This document shows, piece after piece, positions 30,001 to 54,000 of a DNA stretch of 64,000 nt; position 1 is the first letter of the stretch, and each line of letters opens with the position of its first letter. The stretch covers positions 5,659 through 69,658 of the forward strand of contig JAZDOX010000038.1 of the NCBI GenBank assembly GCA_043798215.1, written 5' to 3'. The notes beneath the pieces are model-generated. The model was not told where the DNA came from. It saw only the letters and a list, made by a program, of their open reading frames with translations, and made no database searches. The stretch comes from Candidatus Omnitrophota bacterium (GTDB taxonomy: Bacteria; Omnitrophota; Gorgyraeia; Pluralincolimonadales; Pluralincolimonadaceae). The position numbers and the translations under genes were made by a program.

Positions 30001-33000
30001 CATATTCTCATCGTCTATGCTCCCGCCAAATAGATAAGAATCGACCGCAATGTCTATTAATCCAGAAGAAACGCCGCCGCCAAGCATCCATCCAAAAGTC
30101 GAGTTTAGAATAGGGGTAAAGACGCTTCTATCTATTAATCTCGCGGCGAAATCGCCCACATTCTTATCTACCCAGCTTATGGCGCGATTGAGCAGATCAT
30201 ATTCGCCAAGAAGCTTAACCCTTGCCCCTGCAAGTACCGGACCTAAAGTAGCGTAAAGCCCTGAAACTACCCACATCCTTTCGCTTAATATAGGCGCGGT
30301 TATCGTGTAGAGCATCTCGTCTGCCAAAGATAAAGGAGTCTCGCCCCAGCCGCTGCTTGCGGTCCCGGGCACATTAAGAAATGAACCGCTATATAATAAT
30401 GCTTGCGCCGGCAATCTTAACCATGAGTCCTTCTCTATACCTGACATATCCAAGAGCGAATTTAAAGTCTTTCCGGCAAATGAAAACAACGTATTGTATT
30501 GAGTGGCAACAAGCACGCCTTTGGCTATATTCGCGGCCAATCCCAGAAGAGGATAAACGCACGGCGCTCCCGGTGTCGGCGTCAAAGCAGCCGCCGTCAC
30601 AATAAGAATCGCGGAAGCTGTTGTTAATGCCCCTGCCTTGATTATTCTCTCTGTCCTGTCCGCCTGATGGTTGAGGTAATAACTTTCCGCGGTCTGGCCC
30701 CAAGCAAAGAGAGTATCCAATGAGGTATTCATTGTATCCTTTACCAAATCGAAATATCCGTTCGCAAAATCATAGGCGCCGGCTATATCGCCATCCACAA
30801 GACGCTCGATCACCGTATCTGTATACGCGTATACCAAATTGTAATCCTGGCTTAAGCTTTCTTCAAACGGGTTTTGATCTTCACCAGCAGGTGAAAGAGG
30901 GTCTCCCATAGCCTCTTGATATTCATATTTGTCAAAGACCTGCCGTCCTTGTCCCTTGAAAAAGCCGTTATCGAGACCGAGGTTGACTTTTTCAGCAGCG
31001 GTTCTCATATCAACGCAAAGCAAGAGCGCCGCGAACTTCTTGCTGAAATTTTGCTCTCTTTCCGCGTAGTTGGTCCTGTTGAGAAACTCTTGAACAAGGC
31101 CAAAATCCTGCGTCCGTTCAAACTCTTTCATTAAATTTGCAAACTCGGCTTCCAGCAAATCCAATGCCGCTTCTTCCGCCACTAATTCATTAGCGAGATT
31201 ACGCGCGTCTGCGCCAGTTCCTGTAAATACAAACGAGGAATCGAGACCGGGATTATATGCGGATAACGGAAGGAAATAATCACTGTCTATATAGTCTTTC
31301 AATTCTTTTGCTGTCTTTGGTCCGGCTCCAATAAGCGTAAGCAGATCATTTTCCGCATTCGCCTCGGCGATGGACGGTTCCAAAAACCAGCCTTTTACTA
31401 AGTCCTTACTGCCCTCCTCCGTGATAACCCCTAATTCTTTCAAGACGTCCAATGCCTTAGTGTCTTCTTTTATAAAATCCCTCACCTGCGCCTTGCCGGA
31501 ACCGTCTAATTTTTCAAAGGATCTTATAAAATCTTCTTTCGCTTCGTTATATTTCTCCTCCGCTGAGCGCGCTTCTGTCTCCGTATTTGCTACCTTCGGG
31601 GCTAACTCGTTACATAATTTTTGCTGATCCGCTATTGCCTCCTCCGTAATTATAATCAAACTTCCCTCTTGGGATTTTGCTCTCTGCCACTCGAGCAATG
31701 CCTTTGCGGCGGCGCTATAGTCATTTGCCGCCGCAGACGCTTCATCCTTCTTTTTATAGTAAGCTTTTCCTTCTTTTTTGGCGTTATCCAAAAGGCTCAA
31801 AGATTTAATTACCGCCTCATCTCCGGTCTCCTTCTTTAATGGATCGAAAGAGTTCTGCAGTAATAACCCGCGCATCTGTTTTTCGGCCGCCTGCCAATAC
31901 GCGCTAAATTCTTTGCCGTCGGGCGCAGGGCAGTACAAACCTTGACTTTCCATAAAGCCGAATATTACATCCTGGCGATTGAATATATACGCTTCCTTGC
32001 AAAGGTCAAATAACCCATCATAAAACCCGCCTGATTGAACACACTCATTTAGCAGCGCGTTGGTAAACTGGCCGGGAAGATAACCGCCGACGGTTATCAA
32101 AGTTGCGGCGTCATTTCCTTTGTTATCCAAATAATCGCCCATCTCCAGGCATTGCAAGAACTTCTCAGTCAATAGAGACACCGAACCGCGGCCGCTCATT
32201 ATAAAATCGTTTATCGTAAGCCCATTGGGCTTCAATATCTCTTCATAGAATAAATCCACCCCGTTTATAGCTCCGTATTCGGTATCAACCTCAAAAACCT
32301 CAAGCTCTTTTATGATATTCTGATGGCGTGCCTGCGCCGACCATACTTCGGCGTTATTAAGATCGGTGACGTATAAAACGGCGTTCTCGGAGCTGTTCGG
32401 ATCATAAACAGTTATCGTATTTTTAATTAAATCGGTGGCTGTCTCTATCTTCCTGGTAACAGTATTAAAAACAACTATTCCTTCCGCAATATTTTTGCCG
32501 TTTTCCGGAGATGCGCTAAAGTATGTCCTTGTTGTCAGCCCGGTCTTATCATCGGCAATATCCTGAAAAGAAAGGCGCAATGCCGCGCCGCCGGTATAAT
32601 AATTCGACTGATTATACATATCTATAATTGAAGTTCCGTCGGGATTTTGTTGCAGCGTTATGTCGGCGCCGGTTATTGCTTTATAAGTGGTGGTTATCTT
32701 CCCATCTTTATCTTGTTGTATTATCGTATTAAACAGCCTTGTCTTGCCGCCGCCTATAATGATCGTCCTGCCGCCATCGGGAAGCGTGATTGAGGTAACC
32801 GGGTCGTCGTATGTTATGGCAAACTCAAGTCCTTTAACCGGCGCTGTCTTCAGCGAAGAAACCTCGATGAGGGCGCCGCCGGGAAGGCTAATGCCGTCTA
32901 TAACCGTATCGTGCCCGAGACGCCTGCTGACCACCCTGCCTAAACTGTCTATTATCTGGGCTTCGTCAAGAATATCCTCTTTTAAATAACTTAAATAGTT

Positions 33001-36000
33001 TTCTGGAAGAGGACCCTGAACGATATTCTGCAGCCCGCTCTTGGAATTATATATTTTGACTTCTCTAAATCCGTATTTATCGGCGGCGCCTATAGTCTGA
33101 AGCGTTCTATCGCTGGCGTAATCTTTCAATATCGTCTCTTTTAACTCGAGAAAATTCATTGAACCAACCTCAATTCCATTGGCATCCTTAACAGTCTCTG
33201 TCTTTCTTTCATAGTTGTAGATAGTCTTCGTTCCTGTTTCAAAATCGGAGACTATCCAGGGATATAATCTCGCGCTGCCGTCTTCAAGCCATATCGCCTT
33301 TGTTAGAGAAATTCTATTATCGCCGGCGTCGCTATGAGAACTCATCGTGTCAATTGTTACTATAACCTCTCCTAACCGCGTCTTGTCTTTCTCGTAACCA
33401 TAAAATCCCACTTTGCCTTCGCAATGGCCATCATAGTCTTCCGTGTACTCTTTGGATTCAACCAACGATTCGATTGAACCGCTTTGATTCAACGTTGTAA
33501 TTATCTCGCCGGTATTCAGATTTTTGGATATGGTTCTGTAATCATAGCTATTGCCTAACACGATCTCTTCCTGCCCGGGCAAGAAATCAATATAAGCGTT
33601 ATTTAAAACTACGGGAGCGGCTTTCGAATCTTTTTTAGTATAATCGGTTATCGACTGCGCCCTGCCTTTATTGTCAAAATTTCCGTATACCCCTGTCTTT
33701 ATTCCGCAGTTTTCATCGAATATGCCGGTTGAATAAATTTCGTTAAAGGTTGATTTATCCAAAATATAACACTCAACCGATATCAATTCCTTACCGTCAT
33801 ATATATATTTCTTTATGGCGGCCTTCTCCAGCGCCTCTCCTTCAATATCATCCCGTATATAGTTCAAATTCGCGGCGGCCATCTCAAAATCCGACTCTTT
33901 CAGATCTTCGGTCAACAAGTCAAAATCAAGCAGGCCGTCTTTATAAAATTTAATCTCGCCGTTCTTAAAATCTATGTATATCTGTATCGGCTGATTAAAA
34001 GCGTTCGTCGTATCTAACTTAATGCCTATCTTCCCCCCTGTGGCCTTGTCTTCAACGTAATCGAAATAGTCTTCTTCTACTAACTGCGCGTCGCCTTTCT
34101 TCAGCAACTCGCCGACATAATCGTATCTTATATCCATCCAATCATTAAGCGGAGTTAAGATGTGTTTCTCAAAAAGCCCGCCGCCGACAAAAGCCTCCGG
34201 CGCTTTATTCTCGAGATAACCGACAAGGGCATACCTTAAGGCGTCGTCCATATCGCCTCCGATAAATATGCCCTGCATATTTTCCAAGATATTGTAGGCT
34301 ACTTTTAATGTTTCTGCCTCAAGCCCCTTTTCGATATCGGCAGATTCCAGGATATCCTGACTCTCATTGCTCAACTCTCCGTAACCTGTCCTAAGAGCCC
34401 ATCCGATCAAAGCTCTTATAGCATCGTCCTTTACTCCGCATTTCTTTAGCGTGGAATCTATGGCCATATTCACGCTCTCTTTAGCGGTTGCCGTTACCAT
34501 CTGGCCCAAACCCATCTTCCACTCCTGGCCGGCTTTGACAGGCTGGCCGCTGAAATAGCCGCGAGTAAAGGATGTGCCGGCGGTAGCCAACAAAGACGAC
34601 CATGTCTCATTTAATCCCGCGCTCTCCAGCAAGGATTCAAGGCCCATATTCACCGCCTGATAGATAACATTATCTATCATATAACTCTTAAAACTTTCCC
34701 ATGTGGAGACGGTCGTAACGCCCGCCACGCCGCTGGTTGTTGTGCCCGTTGTCCCGGCCGCTCCCGTCCCGAATAAATTTGAAAGCCATCCGTCCGGAAG
34801 TAACTTCCCTAAACCCTCGCCTACGACTTGTCCAACACAAGAAGTAACAAGTGACGTTATGCCCGCGCCCACACCCGCCATAGGGTCCCTTGTTAAAGTA
34901 GCGGCCTTATAGCCCTGCCAGGTAGCGGCTAAAGCAGGATTCACATAAAATAACACCGCTGTTACAATAAAATCACATACCTTAAACCAATCCTCGTCTG
35001 AATGTTTAACTAGCCACTTGCGGAATTTGCTTCCATTAGCCCAGTCGTCTTTCCAGAGAGAGACCTTTTCTTTATCTATGAAATTGCCGTAATTGTCGTA
35101 TTTATAATAATATTTATCTTCCCCTTTATATCCGCCTCGATACTCGTTGTGATAATAGTAAAGGATCTCGCTTATCGGCATCCCTAAACTGTATTCGATA
35201 TCGCGGATTCTGGTTATATTTTTACCCGGCTGAGTGTCGGCTATGTCGTAACCGCGTATCTGCTTATATGAATTATAGATAAAATCGGTCTTGGTCATAT
35301 CGCCGGTCTTTTCCCATTCGAGCAAACTGTATGGATCGTATTTGGCTGAATATGAGGCGTCTTCATTGCTCATATAATAACCAATAATATTCCCCATTGG
35401 ATCATATGCTATATTGAACATACCGCTGTCTTCGCCGCCATAGATATTCCTTAAAGCCGTGCTAAGCGGTTTGCCTAATAAATCATAACTGGTATAACCC
35501 CTTAAGGCGCTATTAAATATACTATCCCCGCTGTAATTCTCCTCGAGCCAACTTATCATATTGCCTGAATCATCGCGGCTGATATAGCTTTTTACGGTTG
35601 TAAGATCAACGGGCAGACCCGTAAGTTCCCAAGTATAAACATTAAACGTTTTACCAAACCTTGTATAGGGATGATTTACTTTTTCCCACTGCTGGCCGGT
35701 TCCCTCTCTATGCGTCTCAAGGACTTCATTGTAAGCGCCTGAACCATACCAATCCGCCGAATAATTGGTTGTCGTTGTTAAAAATCCCGCGGCTGTTCCA
35801 TCTATCTTATCCCATACGGTTCTGCTAATATCTTTATAACCCTGCATATTGCCGAATCTATCATAAGTAAAAGTTTTATTGCCGAAGACAGAGGGAAGAC
35901 GCCAGCCATTTTCGGCGTCAAGCCATTGGCTGCCGGTATATTCATAACTCAAAAGTTGGTTCTTCCAATTATATTGGTTGTTATACTGTTTATACTGGTC

Positions 36001-39000
36001 GACGATATCTTTAAAACCGGCCGCCGATGTAACTTTCTTAACGTCGAAGCTGGTCGCGTTTCCATAATTATCACGCTCATTTATGGTCCGTATTTCAGTT
36101 ATTGCGGTAACCAGCTTGTGGTTCTCTAATAATGTCGTGGTGGTCGTTGATATATCAACGCGGCCTGTTTCTATATCGGCTTGGTTGGCCTGCGCTATCT
36201 TTACCTCTTGAACTCTGCCGTTCGCGTAGACATCCTTCAGATATTCGTTTTGGGTTAGGATATCGCCCCAAACGTCATAAGTTATAACACTATCTTCCGA
36301 TTCAGCCTTTACTAACTGACTTCCCATATCGAATGAATTTAGGTTATCAAAAATAGCATACCCTATGACTCCCGGCGCGTCGCCATATACACAATAAAAA
36401 TCATAGTTGCAATATTTGCCGCCAACCCCGTTAATCACATGACGCTTACTAACTACGCCGTCTTTATAATACTCCAGCTCAAAGGGTATATCGCTTCCGC
36501 TATACAAAGATCCCTTATGCGTAACTCCTTTATTAAAATTTTGTAGAAAATAGGTTGTATCCGAGACTTTGGCAAAATACTTATCTTCAAAATCATCGAC
36601 GGAGTAGGTTATATCAAAAACTCTGCGGCCATTCCCGATAAAATAAAAATATTCTGTTTTTTCCGACAGAGGCGCCATATCAAAAGACGCGCTGCGAAAA
36701 ACATCATATTTTTCCTGAATCATCTGTGGGGAGCCGCAGTTCCAGTTCAAAAGTTTACTATAATCTATCTCTCCATTTATCTCATCAATAACAGTTAACC
36801 GTTCTGTTTCATAATCTTTGTATAGCAACTCTGCAAAATCTATGCCGCGGCCGGAGCTTGCGTCGTAATCGCCGAAATAATATTGTTCGCGATATTTATA
36901 GATAAGATAATACCTATTTCGAAACTCAACATTTTTCTTTTCAACCTGCTTTATGCCGCCGGTCGGACTATATGTATAACAATATTGCGTATTCCTCTGC
37001 TGGAAGGACTTATCTAACATTTTTCTCTCTGAATTAAACTTGGCGAGTATTTCAATCTCACCCTCGGACGTGTGGTAGATTCCTTCAAGAAGCGCCGCCA
37101 ACTCTTCCGCGCTATCTATATCTTGATTAAAATATACCTTGTCTGAATCAAGCGCGTCCTTTTTAAGGATTACCGCGCCAACTTCATCTTGTATATCATG
37201 CATTGTGATTTCTGAAATGTCTAATTCCGTCGCTATAAAACTATTATTGTAATATCCGGCGGGATCGGCCTCTTTCACATCCAAAAGTGTCAGCCTTATT
37301 TTTTCTCTGCAAAATTCGTCTCTATTACCGGGATTCACATCGATGTAATCTCGGTCATAGATCACTTCATTTTCCCTGCTTAACTGTTGTGACATAAAAG
37401 AATTCGACGCCGAGGGGGCATCTAAAGTTGATTCAACCGTTACATCGCGCGTATATGTGCCATCACCATTAAATAGCAGGCCCCCGTAAGAAACGCTTGC
37501 CGCTGTTGTTCCGCAAGCCGCAAGAAATTCAAGATCCCTGCTTGTGGATGCCGGGCCGTTTATCAGGCGAACCGGACGCTTAAAATCGTCGAGCTCTATC
37601 ATAACTTTGCAATACGCTTTTATAGAACCGTCAAAATTATATTCATTCGCGTATAAGTATTTGGGGTTAAAAAGATCCGCGTTACCCAAAAACTCAAAAG
37701 GCGTATGAATAAATATTTTCTTGCGATATGCGGAAAACACTGTTTTTATCGCGGTTTTCTGATTAATATCGGTTATGCCGGAAGCTATCATCAACGCTTC
37801 CAAATCCTCTGTCGTCTTTATGGTTTGATTAAAATAAATGTTGGCAGTTCCGTCAGGCATAAGTATTTTCCCTGAAAAATCCGTTGTGTTTATGATCGTA
37901 TTCAATAGCTCATTTATAACTGCCGTTGCGGCAGTTGCTCCGCAGACATCCGTTAATTTGGCTTCCAGTTCGCTCTTAAGGAAGCTATTGTTTCCTTTGC
38001 GGCTTGACTTAAAACAGTTCACAGCCGCGGTTATGTCGCCGCTTAAAATTATTCCGGCCGCGGCAAGCCGCGCCTGCAACTCGTTTTCAGTCTCTATTGC
38101 CGGATCAAAGAAAATCTTCGCTCCGTCTTCGGTATCAATAGTATCGTCAAATATTATCTTTGCGTTCAAAAGATTAGCCGCAAGCGCCGCCGCGAGGGCG
38201 CTCTTTAAAAAGCTGGCATTAACTTCTACATCTACCCATTGTCCGCTTAACCGATACTCCAGGAATTCCTCTTCAATGGATTTTGACTCAAAGCTAAATT
38301 GATATCTCCCGTCAGATCCGAAAATGGCGGTCTGATTTCCCAAATCATCATAATAATACTTGGATTTTATGCCGCCCAACGCAAACCGTTCATCGTAAAC
38401 ATAGCCAAAAGTCCCCGCCGCAACCGGAGTAAGGCTGTAGTCTATTTTATCTTCGCTATTTACCTTCTTATAAGCGTACATCGTGTTGTCCGCGGCATGC
38501 ACGTAGTCAAGCCCGGGATCTTCGGCGTAAAGTATATCTCCTGATATGCCATAATAAGTCTTCCATCTCCATACGGCTGTATCGCTCCCGTTGTAAGTGA
38601 CGATATATGCTAATTTGCTCAAACCATAAAAATACCGATTATTTGAGGTTACGATCCCCGCATCATTAAAAGACTCTGTTTTACTAATCTGGCCATCGGA
38701 GCTATAAAAGGTTTTCGCGGAAACATAATAATTAGCGGTCAAATAAGCGTAGTTGTCTTTATTGTTCAATACGTTTGTCCTGTGCGTTTCCAGGTTTGCG
38801 CTTGAATAATCCCCAATACAGGATATATTCACATCGAGAAAACCGTTATTATCGGTATCGTAATAAAAAATCGTCGTGGCTTTCTTGGCCCCGTTTAAGT
38901 TGAATGTATTCGAATATTTTTCGCGGCCGAGAATAGCGCCTGAAGTGTAATAACCCACATAACTTCTCCTGACAGCGTCGGCGGGAATATTATTGCGGTC

Positions 39001-42000
39001 GCTTAAAATAGCGCCGCTCTTATACCAAGTTTCCGTATGTTCCAAGTTGCCGTTTCCGTCATAATAATAGAATGTGGTTTCTTTACTTTCTTGGTTATAG
39101 AATCGCTCTATCTTTCCGGTTAAAAGTCCGGAACTATAATAATATGATACTGCGGGCAGGGCCGAATCCAGATAATTATAGTACTTGCAACTGATATCGT
39201 TGACTCCATCTTTGTCTTTATCGTAATAAAAAATGGTCTCCGCAACGGAGCCGTCGGATGCATACGTGTAAGTCTCGATTTGTCTTCCGGCCGAATTGTA
39301 ATATGCGGAGGTAACCGGCAGATCCGAAACCATTCCAATGTTATCAATCATACATTTTCCGTAAACTGCGACCCCAACCAGTTTTGAATAACTTTTGTTG
39401 GCATATTTACGAAGCAATAGCGATAGGTTAAGAGTGGTCTTTTTCCACTGTCCCGTAGTAAAAGAAGTCGAGCAATACGAAACGTAGATTCTATTTGCTA
39501 TATCGGTTGTGCCTCCATAGCAATCGTCGCCATAGCGATACCGCAATCTGTGGGTCTGGCCGGTTGTATCCATTACGGTAAATTCCAAAATAAATACCTC
39601 GTCAGGAGAAGCCTTTACCAGAGCGCTCACGCTTGGCGAATTATAGATATCGGGATTGCTTACCGTATACTTCACCCCAAATTTCGTCTGGTTATAATAA
39701 TCGGGCTCGGATGAAATTACCTTTACGCATTTGGACGAAGGAATTTCGGGATTGCCCGCATTGGCCAATTCGTATGTCCCGGTTCCCGACGCAACCGTCC
39801 ATTTCAACTTTAATTCAGCCGTCGAAGCGTAACCAAAGTAGTCTACCGCCATAGACACGGGATAATCCGTATCGTAAGCATCCACTCTATCGAGAGTAGC
39901 GTTATTACCGTCTCCGCCATCCACTATTTCGGCATCATAGATATACTTATTGTAGTTGTCTTGCGTTACGCCGTCGGCTTCATAATTTATGACGTAATTA
40001 ATTCCCCAATTCACCATATCCTTATATCCGGTCTCGAATTTTTTCTTCGCGCCTTTTGCCGCGTCGAATCCCGTCGTCTCCCATCCGATTATCTTATTTT
40101 CAGAGTATAAATATTCTGAATAAGTATAGACGCCCGCATCGAGCGTAACCGCGTGATTAATATTATTTTCCTGCGTATCGTCGTAAAAAGTAACGGACTT
40201 TTTATTCGGCCCCTTGGCAGCATCGCTGAATCCAGTTCCTGTAATATCGTAAACGGTTATCTTCTCTATCCTGTCTTCTGTCTCGTAATAATCATATTCG
40301 GAATATGAAAAGACGCCGTATTTATCTTTAGAGATAACGTAAGAAACCCTGCTATCCTGCGTATCGTCAAAATATACCTTTGAGGTTATTTTATATGTAT
40401 CCTGATTATTAGAAACGCAGGAAGCCGTTGTCGCGTCCACGCCTATATCTCCGGAAATGGTTATGCTTAAATTATTGAAATGATCGCCATCGCTATCATA
40501 GTAAAGAGTCGTAGCAACTATTTCCGTTCCATCGGTTGAGGCAAATTTAACGGCCGTCAACCTGCCATAAGTGTCATAATAGGAACAGGATTTAAGCGGG
40601 CCTTTGCCGCTCGTTATGCCATCCCATAAGGTATCCACTTTATACGTCTTTACCATAGAAACCGCGGTATTATCGGCGTCGTTATAACTTATATATTCGG
40701 AGAAGCTATATGTGCCGTCTTCATTCCTGTTGGTTACATAATCCACCTCTTGCCCCCCGGCTTTATAAACTGTCAGCTTCGATTCCAATGGATTTCCCTG
40801 CGCGTCAAATTCGTATCCCAAAACCCAGTCGAGAGTATTGGAATTATTATCGATTGCGGTGTCATCATACTTATAGTCGTAAAGATAAGCCACATCCACG
40901 CCGTTATCCTTATAAGTCCAAACACGACTAATGTCTGTACTGTCAGGCGCATAAATTACTTCCGTTAAGAGGCAATTAGATGCTTCTGCCGCCGCTTTAT
41001 CGCTGAATTCGCCTTTGAATATCTCGGTTCTGCCGACATAACCGTTGTAATAGTCATAAAAAGTAGTGGTTGCCTCCGAATCCTGAGAAGGAGCGCCAAA
41101 ATTAAGTTTATACTCATAGGATCTGTCCAACTCTCTTCCGCCGGGAAGGTATATTGTCTTCTTGACCATATTGTTTGCTAATAGGGCTGAATCGGATACC
41201 GCATCCAAAGCAATAGCGGCAACGGCTTCTTTCATCTTTATCACATAACCTCTACCGGGCTCAAAATCCGTGAAGTCGTTTAGATAATTAAGCCGCACCG
41301 GCGACGCGCTATCATAACCCCACTCATAAGTAAATATCTCCTCGACTAGCCCCGTATTAATAAGAGTATCGACGGCGCAATCGGTAAGGGCGGAGATGCC
41401 GATCCAGTTATAACCTTCGACCAATTCCGGAAGAACCGAATCCACAACATTGCCGTGAATTACAAAACCGGCGTCTTCCGTTACTTTAACCTTATACGCT
41501 ATACCAGAATGCATCTCCCTTAGATCGCCTTTCTGAGTGGAAACTGTGTAGCTTGCTGTTTGTGTTTTTGCCTGAACGCATTTATCCCATATTGATGATA
41601 AAACAACCTCTATGGCGCAATTCTCGGGTTCAAATGGCAAAGATATAAGATTCCATCCTTCTTTTAAACTAATCGAATAGACGATATCGCTGAATTTATA
41701 GTCCGTTATCGTATCAATAGTATCGGGATCGGAATCAACAGTCGTATCGTTATAATTATAAACGCTCGTATAATCTATCGAAACACAATCGACCGCGTAT
41801 GAAATAATCTCTTTTATCTGTCCTTTTTCGTTATAATAGATAGTGGATGTTCTATCATCTTTGTCATAAGGCTCTGTTTCTTTCGCGCATTCATATTTTT
41901 CAATTCGCTCCAGAAGACCGTCACTCGAATAGTAGTAAAACGCGGTTTCTTCTATCGTGCCGTCGATGTTATAAATATATTGCCTCGATGCCGTTAAGCC

Positions 42001-45000
42001 GCCGAGAGCGTCTATGATGTATGCGGTAAAAGACGTGGTTCTGCTATCGAGCATCGCGCATTCATTCCCAAGATCAACCGAACCTATTATCTCCCTGGCA
42101 ACGCGTCCTTTCTCCGCGCCGGCAATATAATAAATCTTGACCGTACTTTCGCCTGTAGATGGATTCGCGACCATCTCATAAAGAAGCGTGTTTCCGCAAT
42201 AAAAAGCCCCTCCGAATTTCTCCTGTTGAGGGTAGGGCATAACTGCAGGTGGCACATTTACTATAGAAAAGGGGTCGCCATAAATAACAGCTTCAGAAAC
42301 CACCGTGTCTTCGAAAATATAATGATATTGATGAATATTTCCGTTATCCGCTTCCGTCATCGAATATAGATTGCCCCATTCGTCATATTTAGAGATTGTC
42401 TGTTTACCGGTATCTTTATTCTTTTCTCGGATCTCGGATAGGTATCCATATGTCGCGTCATAAACGTAAAGATACTCAAAAAGTTCCTTCGTTGCCGTTA
42501 AACGGCCGTGTTCGTCTATCTCGCCCTGAACTATCTTTATTACCCTATTTTTATCAATACCCTCCGTGGCGTAAATTTGTATTTTATTGTCTTCGCTGTT
42601 GGAGGCATATAATAAATTATTATTTACGTCATAGTGGTAATAGGAAATTCTGCCGTCTTGCTTGGTAAAGGTAAGCTCGTAAATTCCGGTATCCGGCGAG
42701 AAGCTCTCGATTACAACGCCGTTTTGAGCGTTAAAGGCCTCTAAATCGGCCTGTGTCCTGCCGGCGGCAAGCTTAACAAGTATGCGGCCTCTGGAAACAT
42801 CCTCCGGTTGGGCGGAATCTATATTCGCGCCTGCTATAAGATTATTATTGTCCAGATATTTATGATACATAGTCTCAAGAGCGGGTGATTCGATAATCTT
42901 TTCGACTAGAGATTCTGTTTGATAGCTAACCTCGCCTTTAGCGTTCACATAAGCAATTGTGCGCGCCATATCGGAATAGACTGTCTTCTGTATCTTGCCA
43001 TAGGGATCTTTTACTATTACCGCTTCTATATTGCCTTCGCTGTCGGTCTCGTAGGTATACTCGGTTACCGCATCTGGATAAACCCTGCTTGCCTCAAAAA
43101 TTATTCTCTCAATTTCCTCGCCTTGGCAGTAAAACTTGGCGTAATATTCGATCGTGTTTTCTTTTATCGCTTTTTTAGATACGGCAAAACCGCGGTAATC
43201 CGCGCAATCGTATTCATATTCAATTTGATTTATAAGCTTATCTCCGCAATATTGCGAAAATAAGACGTCTCTTTGTTGATCATCGTACTCATAGACCTTG
43301 GTATAGTCGCATCCCGTCTCTGTCTTCTTCTCAAGCTTCTTACTGGTCTCGTTAAATTGATAGGTAAATTGGATCTTGTTTTCCGTGTGCATCTTGTCGG
43401 TCATACCTATTAAAAAGCCGTCTTTGTTGTATTCCATAAATTTGTCGGGATATTCAACGGTTGTAATTGCGCCCAGCAAAGGATCGTCCCTATAGGTAAA
43501 GAAATACCTGACTCCGAGAGAATCCGTAACAACCGATATCCTTCCAAACTCATCATAGCCGAAAGCGATATCTCCGGAAGGAAGAACAACTCTCTTTATG
43601 TCAGCGGACTTGGCGCTGTAATCTATGATTGCGCCATCCTGGCAAACCTGTTTAACTATTGTCCCATCAGGAACAATATAGACAACACTGCCAGAAGTAA
43701 ATGGCGAGTTGTATTCCGGAACGTCAAATCGCCATGCGGCGCTCGAAGAGGCGGACTCTAAATCAAGTTTTATGATATCGCCTTTCTTCGCCGTTATTAT
43801 CTGATTATTATTTGCTGTTGTTATGGTAATAGTCTTTGCCTCATAATCTTCTTCGGCATCTTCTACGTTTATCTGCGTCGTAAATGAGGCAGTCTTTATC
43901 CCGCTCGTCTCTTCTATAAGATCAAGCATTATCTGGCCTTTATTCTCGGCTTTAAGGATAAAATTGCTTACAGCCGAGGGAGTTGTAACACAACTCGAGG
44001 ACTCGACCCTAACCGGCGCTTCGTTATAAAAGTTCCATTTGTATTTTCTGAGGTTTTCAGCTTTATCGAGCAATTTATCAAGCAGCTTTACCTTAAGGAT
44101 ATCGCCTCTATGCAACTGGATTACTTTGCCGTTATCGGCATCGGTTACCGTTACTGTCGTCGGCGCGGCGGCTTCTTTCAAAACAACCACGCTTACAGCG
44201 AATATGTCCTTAACCGGCAGATAGGCGGTGTCATCTGTTGAGTAGTTCAAGTCAATATTCGAAGTGCCCCAGTTATTGGCCTTAAAAATCCATTCCATCA
44301 TATTCTCATCCGGAAATGACTGGGCGCCCTGAGGAGTTAATATACTGTAATCCACTCCCGGAAAAGCGCTTGGTGAATACAAAGTTATTTTGGCGGGAGC
44401 ATTAGCGTCATAGTCGGTTAATCGGTAATATTCGGTTATATCCTCCTCATTTATACTCCTCTGCCAAACACAATTCTTGGTTACATTCACGATAAAGAAA
44501 TCACGGCCATTGAGAACGCAGTTTGTCGCGTCATCAACTCCAGCATAAGATATCCATTGCGCGCCGTTCCATTTCGATATCGAAGTAGCTGTGCCGTTTC
44601 CATTCTGCTTATTTATCTCATCTATGATTATTTTGGCTGTGGAAATTGTATTTACCGGCAAAGTGACATAGTTGCCGCCGGTTGTCAAACTTATGTCCGC
44701 AGCAAGCAAGGCGCTTGTTGCGAGGGCGTCTTTCGAGATGGAAAGGCACAGGGAACTTGCCCTGTCAGTTGTTATCGTCAGCTTCTCGCCGGCTGTTATG
44801 CTATAGCTGCCTGCAAGACTAGTTCCGGAAGCATTACCGACACTTAAAATTTTCCCGCCCTGGTCAGCGGCCAAATCAATTAACTGTTGAACGGTCAATC
44901 CTGAAATAACGGGCGGCATTACTGTCTTGCTTATCCCTTCGGATAAATCGAGCACGGCGAAAGCCCCGTAGCCTTCATATGTCTTTAACTCGCCCATGCC

Positions 45001-48000
45001 ATCCGAATAAAGTATTACCCTGCCTGTAGCGTCATAGAGCTCCTCGCTTCCATTCTCGAACTCAATGGCTCTTAAGGTATCCGAGGCGTCGAAATGGCGT
45101 TCGTAGGAGAGCATCTTTGAGCCGTCGGTATTGGTAAGTTCATCCGAAAGCGCCATTCCAAACCTCAATGCCTTAAGGCGTTCGTATCTATCTACTATCG
45201 CGTAAGGCGAGTTATTATCAAAGAGAATCTTCCCTTGTATGTTGTCATTTGTCTCAATCAGAAAACCATTCGAATCGAATTCATAACTGGTCTTTATCTT
45301 CGGGAAGAGATCGATATTGGGATTTATATAGTATAATCCACCGCTGCAGTTATAAAAGAAATCCCTGTTGAGCGCGCTTAGAATTATCCGATAGCCATCC
45401 ACGGGAATATCAGAGGTCTTGTTCGTATAACCTTCCAGCGAATTATCGTCAAAATACACTCTCTGTATGCCGTTTGAAGCCAAAATAATATCTTCGTTTC
45501 TGCACCCGAGGCGCGTCTTAAGGTCGTTCTTGGCGTTATTAAACAAACTAAACGTAGCTTGTATAAGAACCGAGTCTTTTACGTAAACACCCGTTGTGTC
45601 AGTGTGATACTCCACTATTCCATACGAAGGATATGTCATCTTTATGATATAGCCTGTAACAGCCGCATCTCCGGGCGCAATATCTCTGTATCCATCGAGA
45701 GTTGCGTCTGTAAACCGCGTTTTAACGCAGGATAGTATTTCGATATCGGCTATAGCCGCGCCTGTCAGGGTAATAAAATTTTGACGCGCCTGCCGCGCTA
45801 TAAGATAACCATCTTTATCGGTTTGATTAAGAGTAAGTTGGTGGGTCATTGTATCCGTAAGATAGCGAAAGACCATATGATCCGCTTTCAAATCTACAAT
45901 AATGCCGTTGTTATCTTTATCTACTCCGGCAAGCTGGATATCGTTGGCGGTTATGGCAGTTGCGTAAACAGTTGCGAATGTCGAGATTAATTTTGTTCGC
46001 GCATCGGCAATTGAGGTTAAGTTGATCTCTGGGTCAAGAAAATAACTGGCTGCGTTGCTGTGATAGGTATAGGTCGCGCCGTTTACCGAAAACTCAATAA
46101 CATAGCCATTTGTAGGAGAAGGTGCAGTGCTCCCGCCTGCGTTATAACCATCAAGAGTGGCGTTGCCGAAGGTCTTGGCCAATAGCGAACTTGAGTATAG
46201 CTTAATATCGCTTTCGGCGGAACATTTTACGATACCAAATAAGCTTGTTCTGGCGCTTTTTATTAGACTATACGCGGAAGAAAAGACAGGATTCATTTTT
46301 ACTATAGTGATATCGGCTTGTGTTTGCGAGTCTTTTTGCGGGAAGATATGATATTCACATTCTATGCCGCCAGACTCAAGCATAACTTTATAGCCTTTAT
46401 AAGAGGCGGCCACAACAGGACTCGCGAGATATCCGCCAAGAGTGCCGTCTTCAAACAGAACCTCGGTTATGTTTTTGACTGTTATATTTGTAGCTCCCAA
46501 GCCCGTCCATTCATTGCGGGCAGTCTGGATATAGGCCAGGGTTTGCTTCATCTCGGGATCGAGGTCAAAAACGCCTGTTTTAGCGTTGGTATGGTACTCA
46601 TATGAGGTTTCACCGTAAGCAAGCACAATATCCAAACCCACCGTTATGGTATTCTGGGTTTTTGTGCGGTAGCCTCCAAGCGAATCATCCGCCCAGAACT
46701 CATAATCGGCTCTTATAAGTTGTATCTTATCGGTTGTTATATTAAGGCGGGCAGCCAAATCCGCCCTTAAGGCGTTTACAACGTTTTTGGTGTCATATTT
46801 CATCTCGAGGGTTGTGGATATGAGATTATTAAGGGCGTCTCTTTCTTCGGTCTTTGTTATCGTCTCGTTGGTTATGGCGGTGGGAATAGTTACGGAGCCG
46901 CCGTTTAGGTTGACTTGCCTTCCACCTTGATCGGTTATGCTTAAAAGCTTTCCGGTCTGGTTATCGAATTTATAGAGTACTCCGTTTGAGACTAATTCGA
47001 CGGTCGTTATCACCTCACAACCCTTTGACTGGTCGTAGACTTTAGTATAAGTTATCCTCTCAGTCTTTCCGTCGGAGTAGAACTTGCCTGTCAGAAGGCC
47101 GTCTCTTAAACTCATAGTAACGCCACGATCATCCTGGATGATTTTATCCCTTCCATTCTGCGATTCGATTCCCGAGACTATCGCTGATGGCTTATAGAAA
47201 GTGGTTGTCTCTTTTCTAACTATCTCGCCCTCGCTTACAAGCTCACTCTTTGTCTCTATAATACCGCCATCATCGCTAATAGCGTATTCAAGCCAGCCTA
47301 TAACATCGCCGCTACTATTGTAATTTACTTTCCTTACGCTTAGTGGATCCGCCTCGGCTGCCTTCCACTCGCTGTCCACCTTAACAGCAACGCGTTTGTT
47401 CGTCATAATATCGCCGTGAGCCTGTATCGTTGAGATTGCCGGATCCGAAGGATATATCACAAAACCGTCATCTTCGGCTATTCTTACATTATCAACATAA
47501 ATCTGGCCGCTTGCCGTAGCTCCGTTAACAACAAGGGCAATCCCTCGCACATCGTCTAAGTCGGCTACCGGTATCGAGAAGCTGTCCGTCGTGCCGGCTT
47601 TTCTCCATCCAGGAGAACTGACGTCAAAGACTATTGTGTTGGCGCCGGAATTTAAAACCTGGGCCTCGCATTCATACCATACTTGGCCCTCTCCGGTTGA
47701 AAGGGCGACATTTACCGTCTTTTGCGCGCCGGGATTGTATATGTCGAACTTGAACCTTGCCATATTGACAGCGCCTTCTTCGGGAAGGGATTCCGTTGTT
47801 ACAGACCACATCTCTTCTATGCCTTCAAGCTTGAAGACAGCTTTATCGTATCCGCCCACAAAAGTAAGCTCTAAAGAATTTAACCCTTCGGTAACATAAC
47901 TTGTGGAAATGTCTATCTCTCTGGCGCCGGTTGTGGTATCGGCCGCCCAACTGGACTCTAAGCTATGAATAGGGCTCTCGCAATCATCGAATAAGACATC

Positions 48001-51000
48001 TCTCATACCTTCGTAGCCTAAGTTCCAGAAGCAGGAACCGTTTACCCCTGTATTCTGCATCTCGGCATAGTATTCCTGGAACCTGGTTACTCTGTCCAGC
48101 TCGTCGTACTGGGGATAACGGTATTGCTTTATCTCGCCGAAGCCGCCCCAGTATATGTATCCCACGGTATGAATTCCGTATTCCTCCATAATGACGGGCT
48201 TTCCTATCTTGTTATGGGCGTCCTCCAAATGCTGCCTTATCCATTTTAAATGCCTTTCAGAGTCATCTTCGGTGGGGAATGAGTTAAACTCCGACTTGTC
48301 TATATATGTCCTGAAAGTGCAAAAGTCTATGCTGGGGCAGCCATCTCTCCATTCGCTCATAACAGGGCTATTGGCGCCTTCCTGCCAGCTTACAAGGGTA
48401 TCGGTAGATTTGTTGTCGCTTATGAAGTCTATTCCGCTGGAGCCGTTTGTGACACCGTAAATCCAGTGGTTGTAGGGAAAATCCTGCCATTCGAACTCTT
48501 CGGCTTCCTCTATGGGCATAATGTAGTTACCTTCCTCGCCACATCCTATCATATGGTTGGGGTCTATGGCATCTACGTAATTGGACATCTCCACTATCCA
48601 GTTATGGACCCAGCCGCCTGAGACATCGCTCTTGCAGCGGGGTTCGTTGAAGACCTCCCATGCAAGTATCGTGGGGTCGTCTTTATATCTTATGCCGGTT
48701 ATGGAGTTTGTCCTATTTAACAGGTAGGTCACGTAATCCTTATACCACTGCTTGCACCAATCATTGACGTAGAACTGGTCGTGGAAGGGGTCGTTCTGGC
48801 CTATCGGGTCTACTTCGTTTCCATATTTATCAAAATCGGGCAGGCTCTCGGGATGTTCTTCGTAAGCCCATCTCATATACTGGTACATACCGCCGTAATG
48901 ACCCCAGTTGTCTACCAGTGGGAGTATGAGACGTATGCCTAATTTACCGGCAGTAGCTATCATCCTGTCTAAATGCTGGAAGGCGCTTTCGTTCCAGACG
49001 CCTCTTTCGGGTTGGTAGCTTGAAGGTTCTCCTTCTCCAAATGCCCATGTCCGGACTACAGTGCAGCCCATATTCTTTGCGGAGGTCAAGACGTTCTCTA
49101 TGACATCGTCTGACTTCTCGAAGAGATACTCGGAGTTGGCGCCCGCAAAGAAGAAGCTTTCTCCGTTTAAGACAAAGTTGGTGCCGGAGGCCTCTACTAT
49201 GCCGTAGTTTTCCTGCGTATAGGCAGAGGACAGCTCTTCTCCTCCTATGGCAACGTTATCTATGTATATGGTCCCTTTATAATCGGTGTTCGCCCAGAAC
49301 TGTATGCCTACCTTTATTATGGATTTAAGCTCTTTATCGGTCATAATCCTGGTTCCTTCATAGTCGGCAAGGTCGGCTAAATCGAATTCCAGGGTATTGG
49401 CATTAAGTCCGCCTACTAACTGGCAGTTGCTGTGGAACCATATGTAGTCTTTTGTGACATCATCATAGCTGGCTACCCAGATGGTTGCGGCAAAATCTGC
49501 CGTTCCTGATTCGGGGGAGCTGAACTTAACATCGGCTGTTATCTTCTTATGATCTTTATTGCTTAAGTTTATGGGAGGGGTATACATAATTCCGGTAAAA
49601 CCTTTTTTGTCCTTGTCAAGGCCTGTGTCCACATCGAAGTCGGTATCCATAGCAAGTGAGTTGTCTTTCCAGTAGACAGAGTCGAAGGCATCCGCGCCCC
49701 AACCGCTGTCTGTGTCCCAGCAGGGAATCTCATTTACACAGTTGGAGTTGCTAAAATCGTAAAGATAGCTTTGCGGAACAAATTCTCCGGCGGTGGATTC
49801 ATAGGAGTATTCGTAGGCGAAACCATCTCCTAAGGCCTCTTCTTTTATAAGGCGGTTCTGGATATCGTAGCTTCTCTTCCTTATAACGTAAGAGCCGTCG
49901 CCGCTTAAAGATTTATCCAGACTCGAGAACTTCCAGCTCACATTACCTTCAGGCTTGTTATCGTAGTATTTCCAGATAGATGGATAGGTGCCGGCTTTTG
50001 GATCGTAGGTGGCTGCTCCAACCAAAGCGCCGTTATGGCCATTTCCGGAGAGGTCAAGGGCTGTCTTGGTGGCGTAATCGTGATATAGCACAAGACCGCC
50101 TAAGGCGATAGATCCTTCCTTGCCGGCCTTAATCTCATCACTCTCAAGCGCCCTGTCATAGACCCTGAGAGAAGATACGGAACCGTTTAAATTCCTGGCG
50201 ATCTGTAAATTGGCGCTATTAAGTTTAAGTTTAATACCCGTTTTACCTGGAACAGTACTGCTTAGAGGCGCGTTGTTATTTAAATAAAAAGTTAGATTTG
50301 CAGTAGCGGTATCATAAGTAAAAGCTATGTAATTCCAGCTGCCGGCGGTAATCGCAAAATTATACGCTACGGTAGAATTATCGGCAAATGCCAAGCATAC
50401 GGTTATGGTATTGCTGGCTATCTGCTTCAACCCGTATGAGTTAAAATCGTAATCTCGCGTCAGCAAATAAGTCGAATTATTTAAGCTATTGAATTTAACC
50501 CAGGCCTCAACAGTTACTTCGTTCTCTATGTTCGGACTGGGGACGGAGCAGCTGATATAAGAGTCGTTTCCGGTCAAATTAAGACCTGATTTGGCGCTGC
50601 CAAGATAATCCACGCTCTTTATTTTACCATCAGGATAATATGAAGTTTGCTCAAGGATATTGTTTAAGGAATCCTTTTTAACGGAATCTACGAGGACATT
50701 ATCTACCACATTGTATTCATAGGTAAATTTATTGCCTGCCGCATCCACATAATCCACAAGCCGGCTTCCCCCGCCTATTACGGCAAACTCGCTGAAATGC
50801 CTGCGGCCGATAAAAGTCCACTCTTCGTTATAATCGAACTGCCAATTTTCACCGGTATTCTCGTTGGAGCAAAGAGTCGTTTTATAGATAACCGTCCCTG
50901 TCTGCTGAAGTTTCTTGTCGACAAATTTGTACTTAACCGCGCTTGGATAGGCCGCTATGGCATAATAGCATCCGTCATTTGAATTATAATCGAATTCCGA

Positions 51001-54000
51001 ACTTAGTATGCTTACGTTAAATTTATCGGCGGAAGCAACAATTCCCAGATTTACCATATCATCGCGAATAGCCTGCTTGAAGGCAAAATCATCGCTATTG
51101 TGATAAACGGCATCCGTCTCGGCAAGCCTCATCTCTTTGGCAAGTTCATTATCGTATTTGTCGTACCATAAGTAATACTTACAGGAAGCATCGGAAGCTT
51201 TCTTTATCGTCAGCTTCATCCAGTGATTGACGGCAGCATCTTCAGCGACACTTTCTATGATGGTATTTACCGCATTCTCTTTGAGGCCGCGGAATAAATC
51301 CACCGAAGCCATAAGAGCGTAATCTATATGAGCCGAATTAAAAACGCTACACCCGCTTACGGTAAAAACAACATCTTTGTATTTACCTTGAAAGGTCACT
51401 GTCCCACCCTGCTTTATGTACTCTATCTGACTTGTTTGGCCATCCAAGTCATAATAATATGAAAGGTATTGATGTTTTTCTGCGGGGCCATTATCGAATC
51501 CTAAACCGGTCTCGGCGCCGTAGGTATATTTATCGACGCTCTTTTGTTTGCCATCCAAATAATATTTGTAGTCTGTTATTATCTTCTTGCTGTAGGGTTG
51601 CGGCGCGCCTGTCGGAGAGAGGTATTGTTTCTCGGTTATATTAGATACGTTTCCCGATGCCTCATAAGCGTAAGAGGCTATCCATAACTCTAGATTATTA
51701 CCAGCGGCATCCTTGACGTATTTAGTATACCCACTCAAGCAGCTGCCGCCGGATTTGTATTCGGCTATAAAATAGTAGATATAGGACTCTGATCCGGAGG
51801 CTGTCTTATATATATTAACTATATCTTCATTTTTATACCTGCTGAAGTCATAGTTTGTGGTCACGGTCTTGATCGCCTGATGAGAAGAATTCTTATCTAT
51901 AACAACGCTCAAGTATAAATAACCTACGCCGTAAGAGGCGCTTATCTGCTTATAATTACCGGCTGCGTCAGCAGGAGTATTCCAGCTGCATACCAAAGTA
52001 TCTCCTGTCTCGGTATAATTCAGAGTATATTGCACATTATTATATTTATAGACAGCCGAATAGCCCGCCGAAGAGATGGCCGCCGACACGAAAGCAACGG
52101 AAGCCGGCAGTTCGTCTTCAAGTAAAAGTTCAAAAAAACTTCTGAGATCTTCTTTCCCCTCAAAACATATCGAATCGTCTCCTACGGTCTTATTCTCATA
52201 GAGCCAATAGACTTTATCTACGTCGGTCTTTACTCCAACAACATCTATAGACGCATAATTAGCGATCTTTTTGGAGGGAATCCAGCTGCATCCCGAAGAA
52301 CAGACTATACAATAAGCTTGCATCCAGTCAATTATCGACGTATCGGCCAATGCCGTTCCTAAGGTATTCTTTATCTGCGTGCAGTTTCCTCCCGCGGCAA
52401 CAATCTCGGCCTTGACTTCGGCAACGGTGTAATCACAGCCGTAGACAAAGGTAACAAGGTTATCTCCGGCTATAAGGCTTACAGCTGTCTTCTCCTGGGA
52501 CTTGGCAAGATTGCCTTTGCTTAAATAGCAGAGGCTGGCTTCTCCTATATTCACCACTACATAGGCCTCTCCAGCCTTAAGCTCAGTCACAGCGGGATCT
52601 TTTAGAGAAACATTGACACCCTGGTCATTAAGCTCTTGAATGAATTCGGACGCGGTATAGGTGTGGTTCTCTATCCAGGGCATAATTATGGCGCTTTCGC
52701 CCTGGGCTATGTAGACGCTCCTGTTCCAGTCGACAATTGTTTCGGATTTTTTAACGCCGTCTTCATAATAGTCGCTTATGGTAACCTGACCTAAGTCATT
52801 TACGGACTCTATAACGCGGCCTCCTGAATCGAGGATATTCGGATAAAGGCCGCTTGCCTTTATAGCTTTAAGCTCTCTATCGGTTAAAGGCGTTATCGAT
52901 TTGTCTATAATGTCTTCTGTTCTTACAAGGGCGGCCTTGTCCCACTGATTAATAAATATATCCTTTTTAGCGGATATGGTATTGCCGTTTATGTCTATAT
53001 AAGAAACGGCATCTTTATTTACATCCGTTAAAACTATATAATGGCCGCCTGCCAAATGGCAGATAACAGGCAAAAAGCCCTCTTCTTTACTATAAGCGTA
53101 TATATCCAGAAGATCCTCATAATCAAGGAGGGCGCCGATAAGATGGACATCATATCCTTTTGCAGCTTCCTTAATAGCGTACATAGAAGTCTGGAGTTTA
53201 CCCGATGTCTCGTCGTTTATTACACCGTTTAAGATGTCTATTAAAAGCGTCTCTTCGGCAAGCTTATCTTCTTTTACTCCTGTAAGTAAGCTAATGGCTC
53301 TTGAGGCGCAGTTGATTACATTATCTATCTGGGTATTGAGCCATTCCGATATCTTTAAGAAGGCCTCTTTTGTGAAATTAGAGACAGACTCTACTATGGA
53401 TAGGACGTTTTCTATTATGGATTTTCCTGAAGACTGCGCGGGAGCCGGCTCAATAGAAGCTTTTTCTTCTTGTGTTATTTCAGAAGCCTGGTCGTAAAGG
53501 GCCTCTTTCGAAACCGCGGACGGCTCCTCCGCTTCCGGCTCAACAACAACCGGAATCCCTGTTATAACGGCTTCTTCCGGTTCAACCGCCGCGGGAAGAG
53601 GTTCTTCGGAATCTATAATATTTAAAGGTTCTTGCAAGGACGCCGGCGCGGCAGGGCTTTCCTCGTAGTCGTCGGATAATATCTCCGGCGGCTGTTCTTC
53701 CTGCGCTTGTTTATCAGGGGCTTCGGTAAAGACCGACTCTATCACCTCATCGGATTCTATCGAATGGGGCTTATCCTGTGGTTTCTTGCCGCCTCCAAGC
53801 AGGACCTTTAATGGCGAGGTCAGTATATCCACAGCGCCTGTTACTATATCTTCCGAGAGATTTAGGCCTTTAGGAATTAAGCCAATCATATCTTTGGTCA
53901 AGTTAAAGGAGAATTCCCCTGTCTTGATTAAAGCGTCTGTTCCAATCTCAACTGGCTTGAATATATTAAAACCTTCCTTATCTTCGGAAGGAGCCGCGGA

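Follow-up and report, generated by a model that had tools for sequence, protein, structure and literature searches.

A C39-family peptidase domain with an adjoining double-glycine-leader-like element near the N-terminus of a giant Omnitrophota protein: a candidate cut-once cassette

We analyzed a 64,000-nucleotide stretch of DNA (hereafter, the window) from a Candidatus Omnitrophota bacterium (assembly GCA_043798215.1, contig JAZDOX010000038.1, forward-strand positions 5,659 to 69,658), in which a giant open reading frame (ORF) encodes, close to its N-terminus, a C39-family cysteine peptidase domain followed directly by an element that resembles the leaders cut by peptidases of this family. 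The frame runs on the minus strand from 54681 to position 1 without a stop codon, spanning 18,227 codons and continuing beyond the window edge. Its sole upstream ATG is found at 54678, giving a protein of at least 18,226 residues; this length is a lower bound, since the part of the ORF beyond the window start is unseen. Residues are numbered here from the codon at 54681-54679 (residue 1), so that a Met-based count is obtained by subtracting 1. The features on which the analysis centers are the following:

1..54678, minus strand: giant ORF, defined by its stop-free frame, start codons, Pfam scans and hydropathy
54445..54501, minus strand, residues 61-79: N-terminal hydrophobic segment RAISLTIAFVFLLEQVAWA, from start-codon translation and hydropathy
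52909..53370, minus strand, residues 438-591: C39-family (papain-like) cysteine peptidase domain, from Pfam, profile search, AlphaFold and Foldseek
53329..53331, minus strand: Gln451, possible oxyanion-hole Gln, from alignment, 7 residues before the Cys
53308..53310, minus strand: Cys458, predicted nucleophile, from alignment and its place at a helix N-terminus in the model
53041..53043, minus strand: His547, predicted general base, from alignment and its place at the start of a beta strand in the model
52993..52995, minus strand: Asp563, predicted third triad member, from alignment, 16 residues after the His
52852..52887, minus strand, residues 599-610: double-glycine-leader-like element LTDRELKAIKAS, from translation, family logo and matrix scan

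An earlier, sequence-only reading of this DNA had proposed a papain/C39-like Cys-His peptidase at 52900-53340, near the N-terminus of the giant protein, and the proposal is borne out by family assignment, fold and conservation. Both strings on which it was based are present in the giant frame within that interval, NVINCASRAISLL carrying Cys458 and GGHYIVLTDVNKDAVSYID carrying His547 and Asp563, and the domain lies about 2.5% into the visible ORF, some 380 residues behind the signal/anchor segment. Pfam assigns it to Peptidase_C39 (PF03412) with a score of 26.7 bits and an E-value of 5e-6, the curated threshold being 22 bits. The match spans profile positions 44-129 of 133 and takes in the half of the profile that bears the His and Asp. 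When 1.84 billion representative proteins were searched exhaustively with HMMER, 213 homologues came up at E<=1e-3. Conservation counts are taken from an alignment of the best 150 of these 213 homologues (151 rows), while a trimmed 37-sequence alignment was used for the family profile and the AlphaFold model. PF03412 is matched by 37 of the 37 aligned family members (best E 7e-14), and the family profile matches the solved structures of the PCAT1 peptidase (7n87, E 7e-10), LahT150 (6mpz, 1e-6) and ComA (3k8u, 7e-5), as well as, weakly, the C39-like domain of HlyB (E 2e-3).

Only two relatives of the domain were found among 185,579 species genomes, both in metagenome-assembled genomes (MAGs) of Candidatus Omnitrophota, and none in one metagenome contig scan. 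Word-indexed protein searches gave no match with the C39 domain alone or with a 3-sequence profile, and only 2 proteins with the 37-sequence profile; a phmmer search of the domain against PDB sequences gave nothing, and the 3-sequence profile gave weak C39 matches only. The orthologue L001 is collinear with the window protein from the start codon onwards, with an anchor, a YD-like region and the same domain at 45% identity, and it retains the Gln, Cys, His and Asp. In the 15 closest homologues among the matches listed (P0001-P0015), 150-800 residues separate the domain from the N-terminus, and a hydrophobic segment usually precedes it. One distant family member is annotated as coming from Victivallales, which extends the family beyond Omnitrophota.

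The residues expected of a working peptidase are largely conserved. The nucleophile position holds Cys in 66 and Ser in 81 of the 151 rows (Cys or Ser in 147), with Cys in all 15 of the closest homologues just mentioned; His occupies the position of His547 in 145 rows, and the position of Asp563 is filled by Asp (90 rows) or Glu (42 rows), 132 together. Conservation of Cys and His in homologues, which the sequence-only reading had made a touchstone of its proposal, is seen among the homologues, with Ser in place of Cys in one subfamily. The position of Gln451, at -7 from the Cys, is less constant (66 of the 151 rows have Gln and 32 have Arg), the Gln being kept in L001 and absent from a second Omnitrophota relative, L002. 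LahT150 has its oxyanion Gln at -6 from the Cys, and the role of that residue has been questioned (PMC6363468). The LahT150 triad is Cys27/His101/Asp117 (PMC6363468), and its His-Asp spacing of 16 is the same as in the window domain.

Because HMMER leaves the Cys-bearing N-terminal part of the domain unaligned to the Pfam model, the equivalence of the Cys rests on the structure model and on spacing. AlphaFold, run from the 37-sequence alignment, predicts a papain-like C39 fold confidently (lack of such a prediction was the other outcome that the sequence-only reading had named as refuting its proposal), with a predicted local distance difference test score (pLDDT) of 90.6 and a predicted template modeling score (pTM) of 0.87; a single-sequence run gave a pLDDT of 40. 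In model numbering, Cys458 begins the helix 34-43, His547 begins the strand 123-130 and Asp563 follows the strand 134-138. The top Foldseek matches in the PDB are the PCAT1, LahT150 and ComA peptidase domains (probability 1.00, target-normalized template modeling (TM) scores of 0.64-0.68), in alignments that cover the whole target domain, and the canonical fold ends near residue 591, where DKAALVRTED aligns to the last PCAT1 strand. Cys458 is present, whereas the non-catalytic, HlyB-type domains have lost the catalytic Cys. Taken together, we regard it as almost certain that the domain belongs to the C39 family and that its triad looks catalytic.

Eight residues after the end of the fold the chain enters LTDRELKAIKAS and then continues with GLYPN. 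Double-glycine leaders follow the consensus Leu-12, three residues, Glu-8, Leu-7, with a hydrophobic residue at -4 and a final GG, GA or GS, and are bound by the peptidase as a two-turn helix (PMC6363468); the leader has also been written LSXXELXXIXGG (PMC1538908). Numbered in the same direction, LTDRELKAIKAS has L at P12, T at P11, E at P8, L at P7, I at P4, K at P3, A at P2 and S at P1. It fits the leader consensus at every recognition position, the exception being the final pair, Ala-Ser. The scissile bond predicted from this match would be that between Ser610 and Gly611, within the peptide stretch PLTDRELKAIKASGLYPN, which covers the candidate site and includes Ala609. Over the LTDRELKAIKAS segment the model (pLDDT 83-96) shows two helical turns and then an extended stretch, a shape that is also that of the leader bound to LahT150.

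The element recurs across the family. The motif L[ST]xxE.xxI[RK]G[AGS] is found at the same place in more than 110 homologues. A strict pattern, [EDQ]xxx[LIVMT]xG[AGS], is seen in 95 of 140 homologues at a distance of 36-100 residues past the catalytic His, where the background of the same proteins would give 0.06 per search interval, and positions outside the strict pattern are likewise biased in these 95, with Leu at P12 in 76, Ser or Thr at P11 in 64 and Arg or Lys at P3 in 74. When only P13-P3 are scored, a clear element is present in 116 of 139 homologues, and the residues left out of the scoring are then Gly at P2 in 114 and Ala, Ser or Gly at P1 in 115 of the 116. Candidates for the double-glycine-type junctions that the sequence-only reading had suggested looking for in orthologues are thus present, paired almost one-to-one with C39 domains and not scattered at domain junctions. 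A further double-glycine candidate in the window protein, AWA/GG (Gly80-Gly81, just after RAISLTIAFVFLLEQVAWA; the slash marks the bond), was rejected: it fits the A-x-A rule of signal peptidase, has a low family-matrix score, and its GG is not conserved in L001.

With the family sites condensed into a position matrix, we can ask where in the 18,227 visible residues a comparable site might occur. The element ending at residue 610 ranks first, with a score of 14.1, and no other position in the visible ORF rises above shuffled controls (shuffle maxima with a mean of 10.5 and a standard deviation of 3.1). GG dipeptides are not enriched (110 against 92 expected), loose leader-like matches number only two, and no further copy of the C39 domain is present in the visible chain. 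The 150 homologous proteins, with about 296,000 residues outside the domains, tell the same story, in that their 124 strong sites lie almost only behind C39 domains; more than one strong site is found in 5 of the 150 proteins, and in two of these five the second site follows a second copy of the domain. This pattern of one domain and one site favors a single cut in cis over dissection of a multi-enzyme chain. The suggestion of a self-processing polyprotein that came with the sequence-only reading hence survives only in part: the peptidase is supported, but a chain cut into many enzymes is not, and a single predicted self-cut, at a site that is atypical in this protein, describes the data better.

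Additional copies of the domain are seen in relatives, 27 of the 150 carrying 2-4 copies along one chain (e.g. P0002, P0003, P0004, P0009, P0015, P0017, P0077 and P0093). These extra copies are of three sorts: active-looking with a motif of their own, active-looking without a motif and followed by Pro-rich linkers, and copies in which Cys and His have been lost. The last sort keeps a degenerate element of the form ...TKGT/FF.

A basic stretch, RKLRNSDIKAIVKR, precedes the hydrophobic segment RAISLTIAFVFLLEQVAWA, which is predicted to be a signal peptide or signal anchor with the downstream chain outside the cytoplasm; the C39 domain is predicted to be extracytoplasmic because of this positive-inside flank of the anchor segment. 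The segment has a counterpart in the orthologue L001, and most complete homologues of the type with Cys as nucleophile (Cys type) have a hydrophobic segment within their first 45 or so residues. In the window protein it is preceded by an unusually long, acidic, Pro-rich and polar extension of about 55 residues (extension and segment, up to AWA/GG, together at 54439-54678, minus strand). No further strongly hydrophobic segment is met after RAISLTIAFVFLLEQVAWA before about residue 6,568.

We put forward, as the best reading of these data and one to which we give even chances, that the domain and the element behind it form a module that cuts once, in cis, behind the peptidase. After export, the short amphipathic helix of LTDRELKAIKAS would dock in the leader-binding groove through L599, L604 and I607, the extended K-A-S stretch would occupy the active site, and the C39 domain would cut once after Ser610, in a single turnover. 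Such a cut would part the N-terminal 610 or so residues (signal/anchor, YD-like region, acidic linker and peptidase) from the remaining 17,600 or more, and the role of the module would be that of a one-domain, one-site cassette for maturation or release. The data show the family of the domain, its fold, the conservation of triad and motif and the pairing of domain with site; the docking geometry, the cleavage and the purpose of the cut are all inferred. For the cassette in the family as a whole, self-cleavage is slightly the better bet; for the window member, judged by its own site, it is a plausible outcome that we would not quite expect.

Several observations weigh against the cut-once module. 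The window site has Ala at P2, the sole such case among 40 Cys-type relatives, and with Ala instead of Gly at this position the site may be weak or dead and cutting slow or lost. Its score of 14.1, although the highest in the chain, falls within the range of the shuffles, whose maxima reach 18. The conserved helix could be a structural, autoinhibitory or pseudo-substrate element, and in a subfamily with Ser as nucleophile the motif stands directly before a membrane helix and might serve as a juxtamembrane helix itself. Among the extra copies in relatives, some look active but are not followed by a motif. Finally, a thiol protease outside the cytoplasm may be oxidized and inactive.

Among other explanations, the one with the most to recommend it, which we nevertheless consider unlikely, is that the domain acts in trans, on surface proteins of prey or host or on separately encoded proteins with double-glycine leaders, and that the helix behind it is an inhibitory pseudo-substrate or part of the fold. 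The predicted extracytoplasmic location, in a class of proteins linked to predation, would suit such a role, cutting of foreign proteins at Gly-Gly is known from C39 toxin domains, and Ala at P2 is what a non-cleavable pseudo-substrate might carry. The active-looking copies without a cis motif in relatives make action in trans likely somewhere in the family as well. What speaks for a substrate is the near-universal Gly at P2, with Ala, Ser or Gly at P1, in relatives, which an inhibitory helix would not need, and the flanking 9 kb or so hold no gene for a double-glycine-leader protein or an ATP-binding cassette (ABC) exporter. We think it improbable that the N-terminal C39 domain cuts the giant at many junctions, freeing glycosyltransferase, isomerase, hydrolase and other units. 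This has been proposed in the literature for Omnitrophota giant proteins, and it draws some strength from the part of the ORF that lies unseen beyond the window and from the 27 of 150 relatives with 2-4 C39 copies, several with their own motif, in which a few cuts would be expected. It has to contend with the single domain and single candidate site in 18,227 residues and nothing else above shuffles, with the lack of GG enrichment and the mere two loose leader-like matches, with sites in homologues that are tied to C39 domains and not to junctions between other enzymes, and with the finding by Pfam of no second protease family, the HExxH motifs being unsupported.

The two remaining explanations deny the domain its peptidase activity. 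A catalytically dead C39-like domain might bind or tether a polypeptide in the manner of HlyB, for instance as an export chaperone for the giant chain, a parallel raised by West-Roberts et al.; the weak match of the family profile to HlyB and the degenerate copies without Cys and His in some relatives point the same way. Cys, His and Asp are all kept here and in the 15 closest relatives among the matches listed, however, and alternation of Cys and Ser with retention of the His is the pattern of a working nucleophile and not of decay, so that we hold a dead domain to be decidedly improbable. More remote still is a papain-fold transferase or cyclase of the BtrH/CtaG type, to which we attach very little weight: CtaG structures do appear among the Foldseek matches (E about 4e-4 to 2e-3) and BtrH-N appears weakly in sequence searches, yet the CtaG/BtrH-type alignments are poor (root-mean-square deviation of about 10 A, target TM 0.3) by comparison with those to C39 peptidase domains, and all 37 members are assigned to PF03412.

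Among the closest known systems are the peptidase domains of the PCAT/AMS exporters (PCAT1, ComA, LahT), with which the window domain shares the Pfam family, the fold, a Cys on a helix, His and Asp on strands, and the spacing of 16 between them; the window element matches their leader consensus at L-12, E-8 and L-7, in the hydrophobic residue at -4 and in the small pair at -2/-1. The differences are several. The window domain is neither fused to nor located beside an ABC transporter, and it is predicted to be extracytoplasmic whereas theirs are cytoplasmic. Its recognition element belongs to the same chain (in cis) and lies C-terminal to the domain. Between its Cys and His there is an extra helical stretch of about 15 residues, and half of its wider family uses Ser for Cys.

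Omnitrophota giants reach tens of thousands of residues, and whether they work as one chain or as cut pieces is a question raised by the papers that describe them. N-terminal C39 domains have been reported in Omnitrophota giant proteins ('Archaeovorins') by West-Roberts et al. 2023, who suggested that these domains might cut the giants into smaller polypeptides, or cut other substrates (bioRxiv 10.1101/2023.11.21.568195). Of the architecture clusters that a second study describes for 916 long Omnitrophota proteins, the PF03412 group is the largest (bioRxiv 10.64898/2026.06.07.730766). The window protein resembles the Archaeovorins in its giant ORF, its signal-like N-terminus with C39 close behind, its glycosyltransferase, methyltransferase and glycoside-hydrolase content, and its internal membrane helices, and its nearest relatives come from Omnitrophota genomes; we see no difference in kind. 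The window protein is a further member of a described class, and the polyprotein hypothesis was already in print in 2023. The first of these papers makes no mention of a double-glycine or GG motif or of a leader, and the second makes none of cleavage or processing, so that the cis recognition element and the coupling of one domain to one site appear, judged from a limited literature search, to be new detail. Since the only conserved candidate site is the one that immediately follows each C39 domain, a single defined cut for every domain is predicted and not a general dissection, with the predicted bonds being Ser610-Gly611 in the window protein and, in relatives, the bond that follows [RK]-G-[AS].

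A precedent for self-cutting by a C39 domain is StbD-CT, a CdiA-like C39 toxin that undergoes a cis self-cut after Gly-Gly in the adjoining linker, blocked by Gly-to-Ser changes (bioRxiv 10.64898/2026.05.07.723447). Like the window domain it is a C39 domain in a very large secreted protein, and its structure (PDB 8ssk) is a match to the window model. Its site is N-terminal to the domain, whereas the window candidate is C-terminal, and the StbD domain, a toxin, forms the C-terminus and is delivered into target cells, whereas the window domain stands at the N-terminus of its carrier. Two other systems, whose protease families are unrelated to C39, offer functional analogies only, in that a giant secreted protein is cut specifically near its anchor or between its modules. 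Giant adhesins of the LapA type are released by anchor-proximal proteolysis through LapG, a separate protein of family C93. MARTX toxins process themselves by means of a cysteine protease domain (C80) that is activated by inositol hexakisphosphate and cuts at several sites.

The wider family holds a second type of domain. Ser replaces the nucleophile Cys in 81 of 151 rows, in a motif LHFGQSAF, with His and Asp/Glu kept (homologues P0016-P0149). Domains of this Ser type are found 1,300-4,700 residues along the chains of long proteins and are followed by ...IRGA/F and, immediately after, by membrane helices; the visible part of the window ORF has no counterpart of them. The Ser type may be a serine-nucleophile version of the papain-fold C39 peptidase, perhaps suited to an oxidizing exterior. 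More broadly, and as a tentative generalization that we think possible without counting on it, C39 plus L[ST]xxE.xxI[RK]G[AGS] could constitute a self-contained, self-cleaving, single-turnover cassette, in Cys and Ser versions, that severs very large surface proteins beside their membrane anchors in Omnitrophota and related bacteria of the Planctomycetota-Verrucomicrobiota-Chlamydiota (PVC) group, the Cys type acting behind an N-terminal signal/anchor and the Ser type just before C-terminal membrane helices. If true, this would provide the first residue-level predictions of cut sites in giant bacterial proteins and a case in which a C39 peptidase of papain fold uses serine as its nucleophile outside the cell.

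Two further relatives show the domain in other settings. In the Omnitrophota MAG contig JBFZAV010000067.1, the L002 protein (L002:2-3091) has a Cys-type domain and the motif LSDDEMRLTTGA followed by G, after which come repeats of the NTVKNVATNVS type, in tandem, and a C-terminal membrane region rich in Gly; it ends after about 1,030 residues, and the combination of C39 domain and motif is therefore not confined to giant proteins. In P0152, a protein of 333 residues, a C39-like domain is fused to a vitamin K epoxide reductase (VKOR) membrane domain, a fusion that may point to a connection of C39 domains outside the cytoplasm with thiol-redox control.

The remainder of the giant ORF is sparse in recognizable domains. 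Pfam scans return RHS/YD repeats, Laminin_G_3, a GH42-like stretch, GT2, a phosphomannose isomerase and a weak methyltransferase match; Glyco_trans_2_3 is matched with E 4.6e-9, and the GH42-like and Methyltransf_31 matches fall under their cut-offs. The architecture is Archaeovorin-like. Neither ABC_membrane nor ABC_tran is matched in the 18,227 residues by Pfam, and no ABC transporter is found in neighboring genes. The flanking genes are housekeeping genes (cinA, ligT, pgpA and pgsA) together with two histidine kinases, and the collections of proteins and contigs that were searched contain nothing identical or closely similar to either the peptidase domain or the cinA product.

The sequence-only reading had also pointed to two HExxH motifs, at 20126..20112 and 2563..2546. 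Both motifs exist, at somewhat different positions on the minus strand: HEITH at residue 11517 (20133-20119) and HEAEH at residue 17383 (2535-2521). Two such motifs exceed the 0.10 expected by composition, a count of two being reached in 0.4% of shuffles. A zincin domain was nonetheless rejected for either, as no Pfam or PDB sequence match was found around them, and the motifs lend no support to a second protease.

Hydropathy also marks out candidate membrane segments further along the chain, whose sidedness it cannot settle by itself. Weak candidate helices are seen at residues 6,568 and 8,013, and a cluster of membrane helices at residues 13,408-13,700 adjoins the GT2 domain. In this last region (about 13,580-15,040, minus strand, residues 13,212-13,700), GT2 stands directly before at least 5 hydrophobic helices, an arrangement like that of a membrane-embedded polysaccharide synthase.

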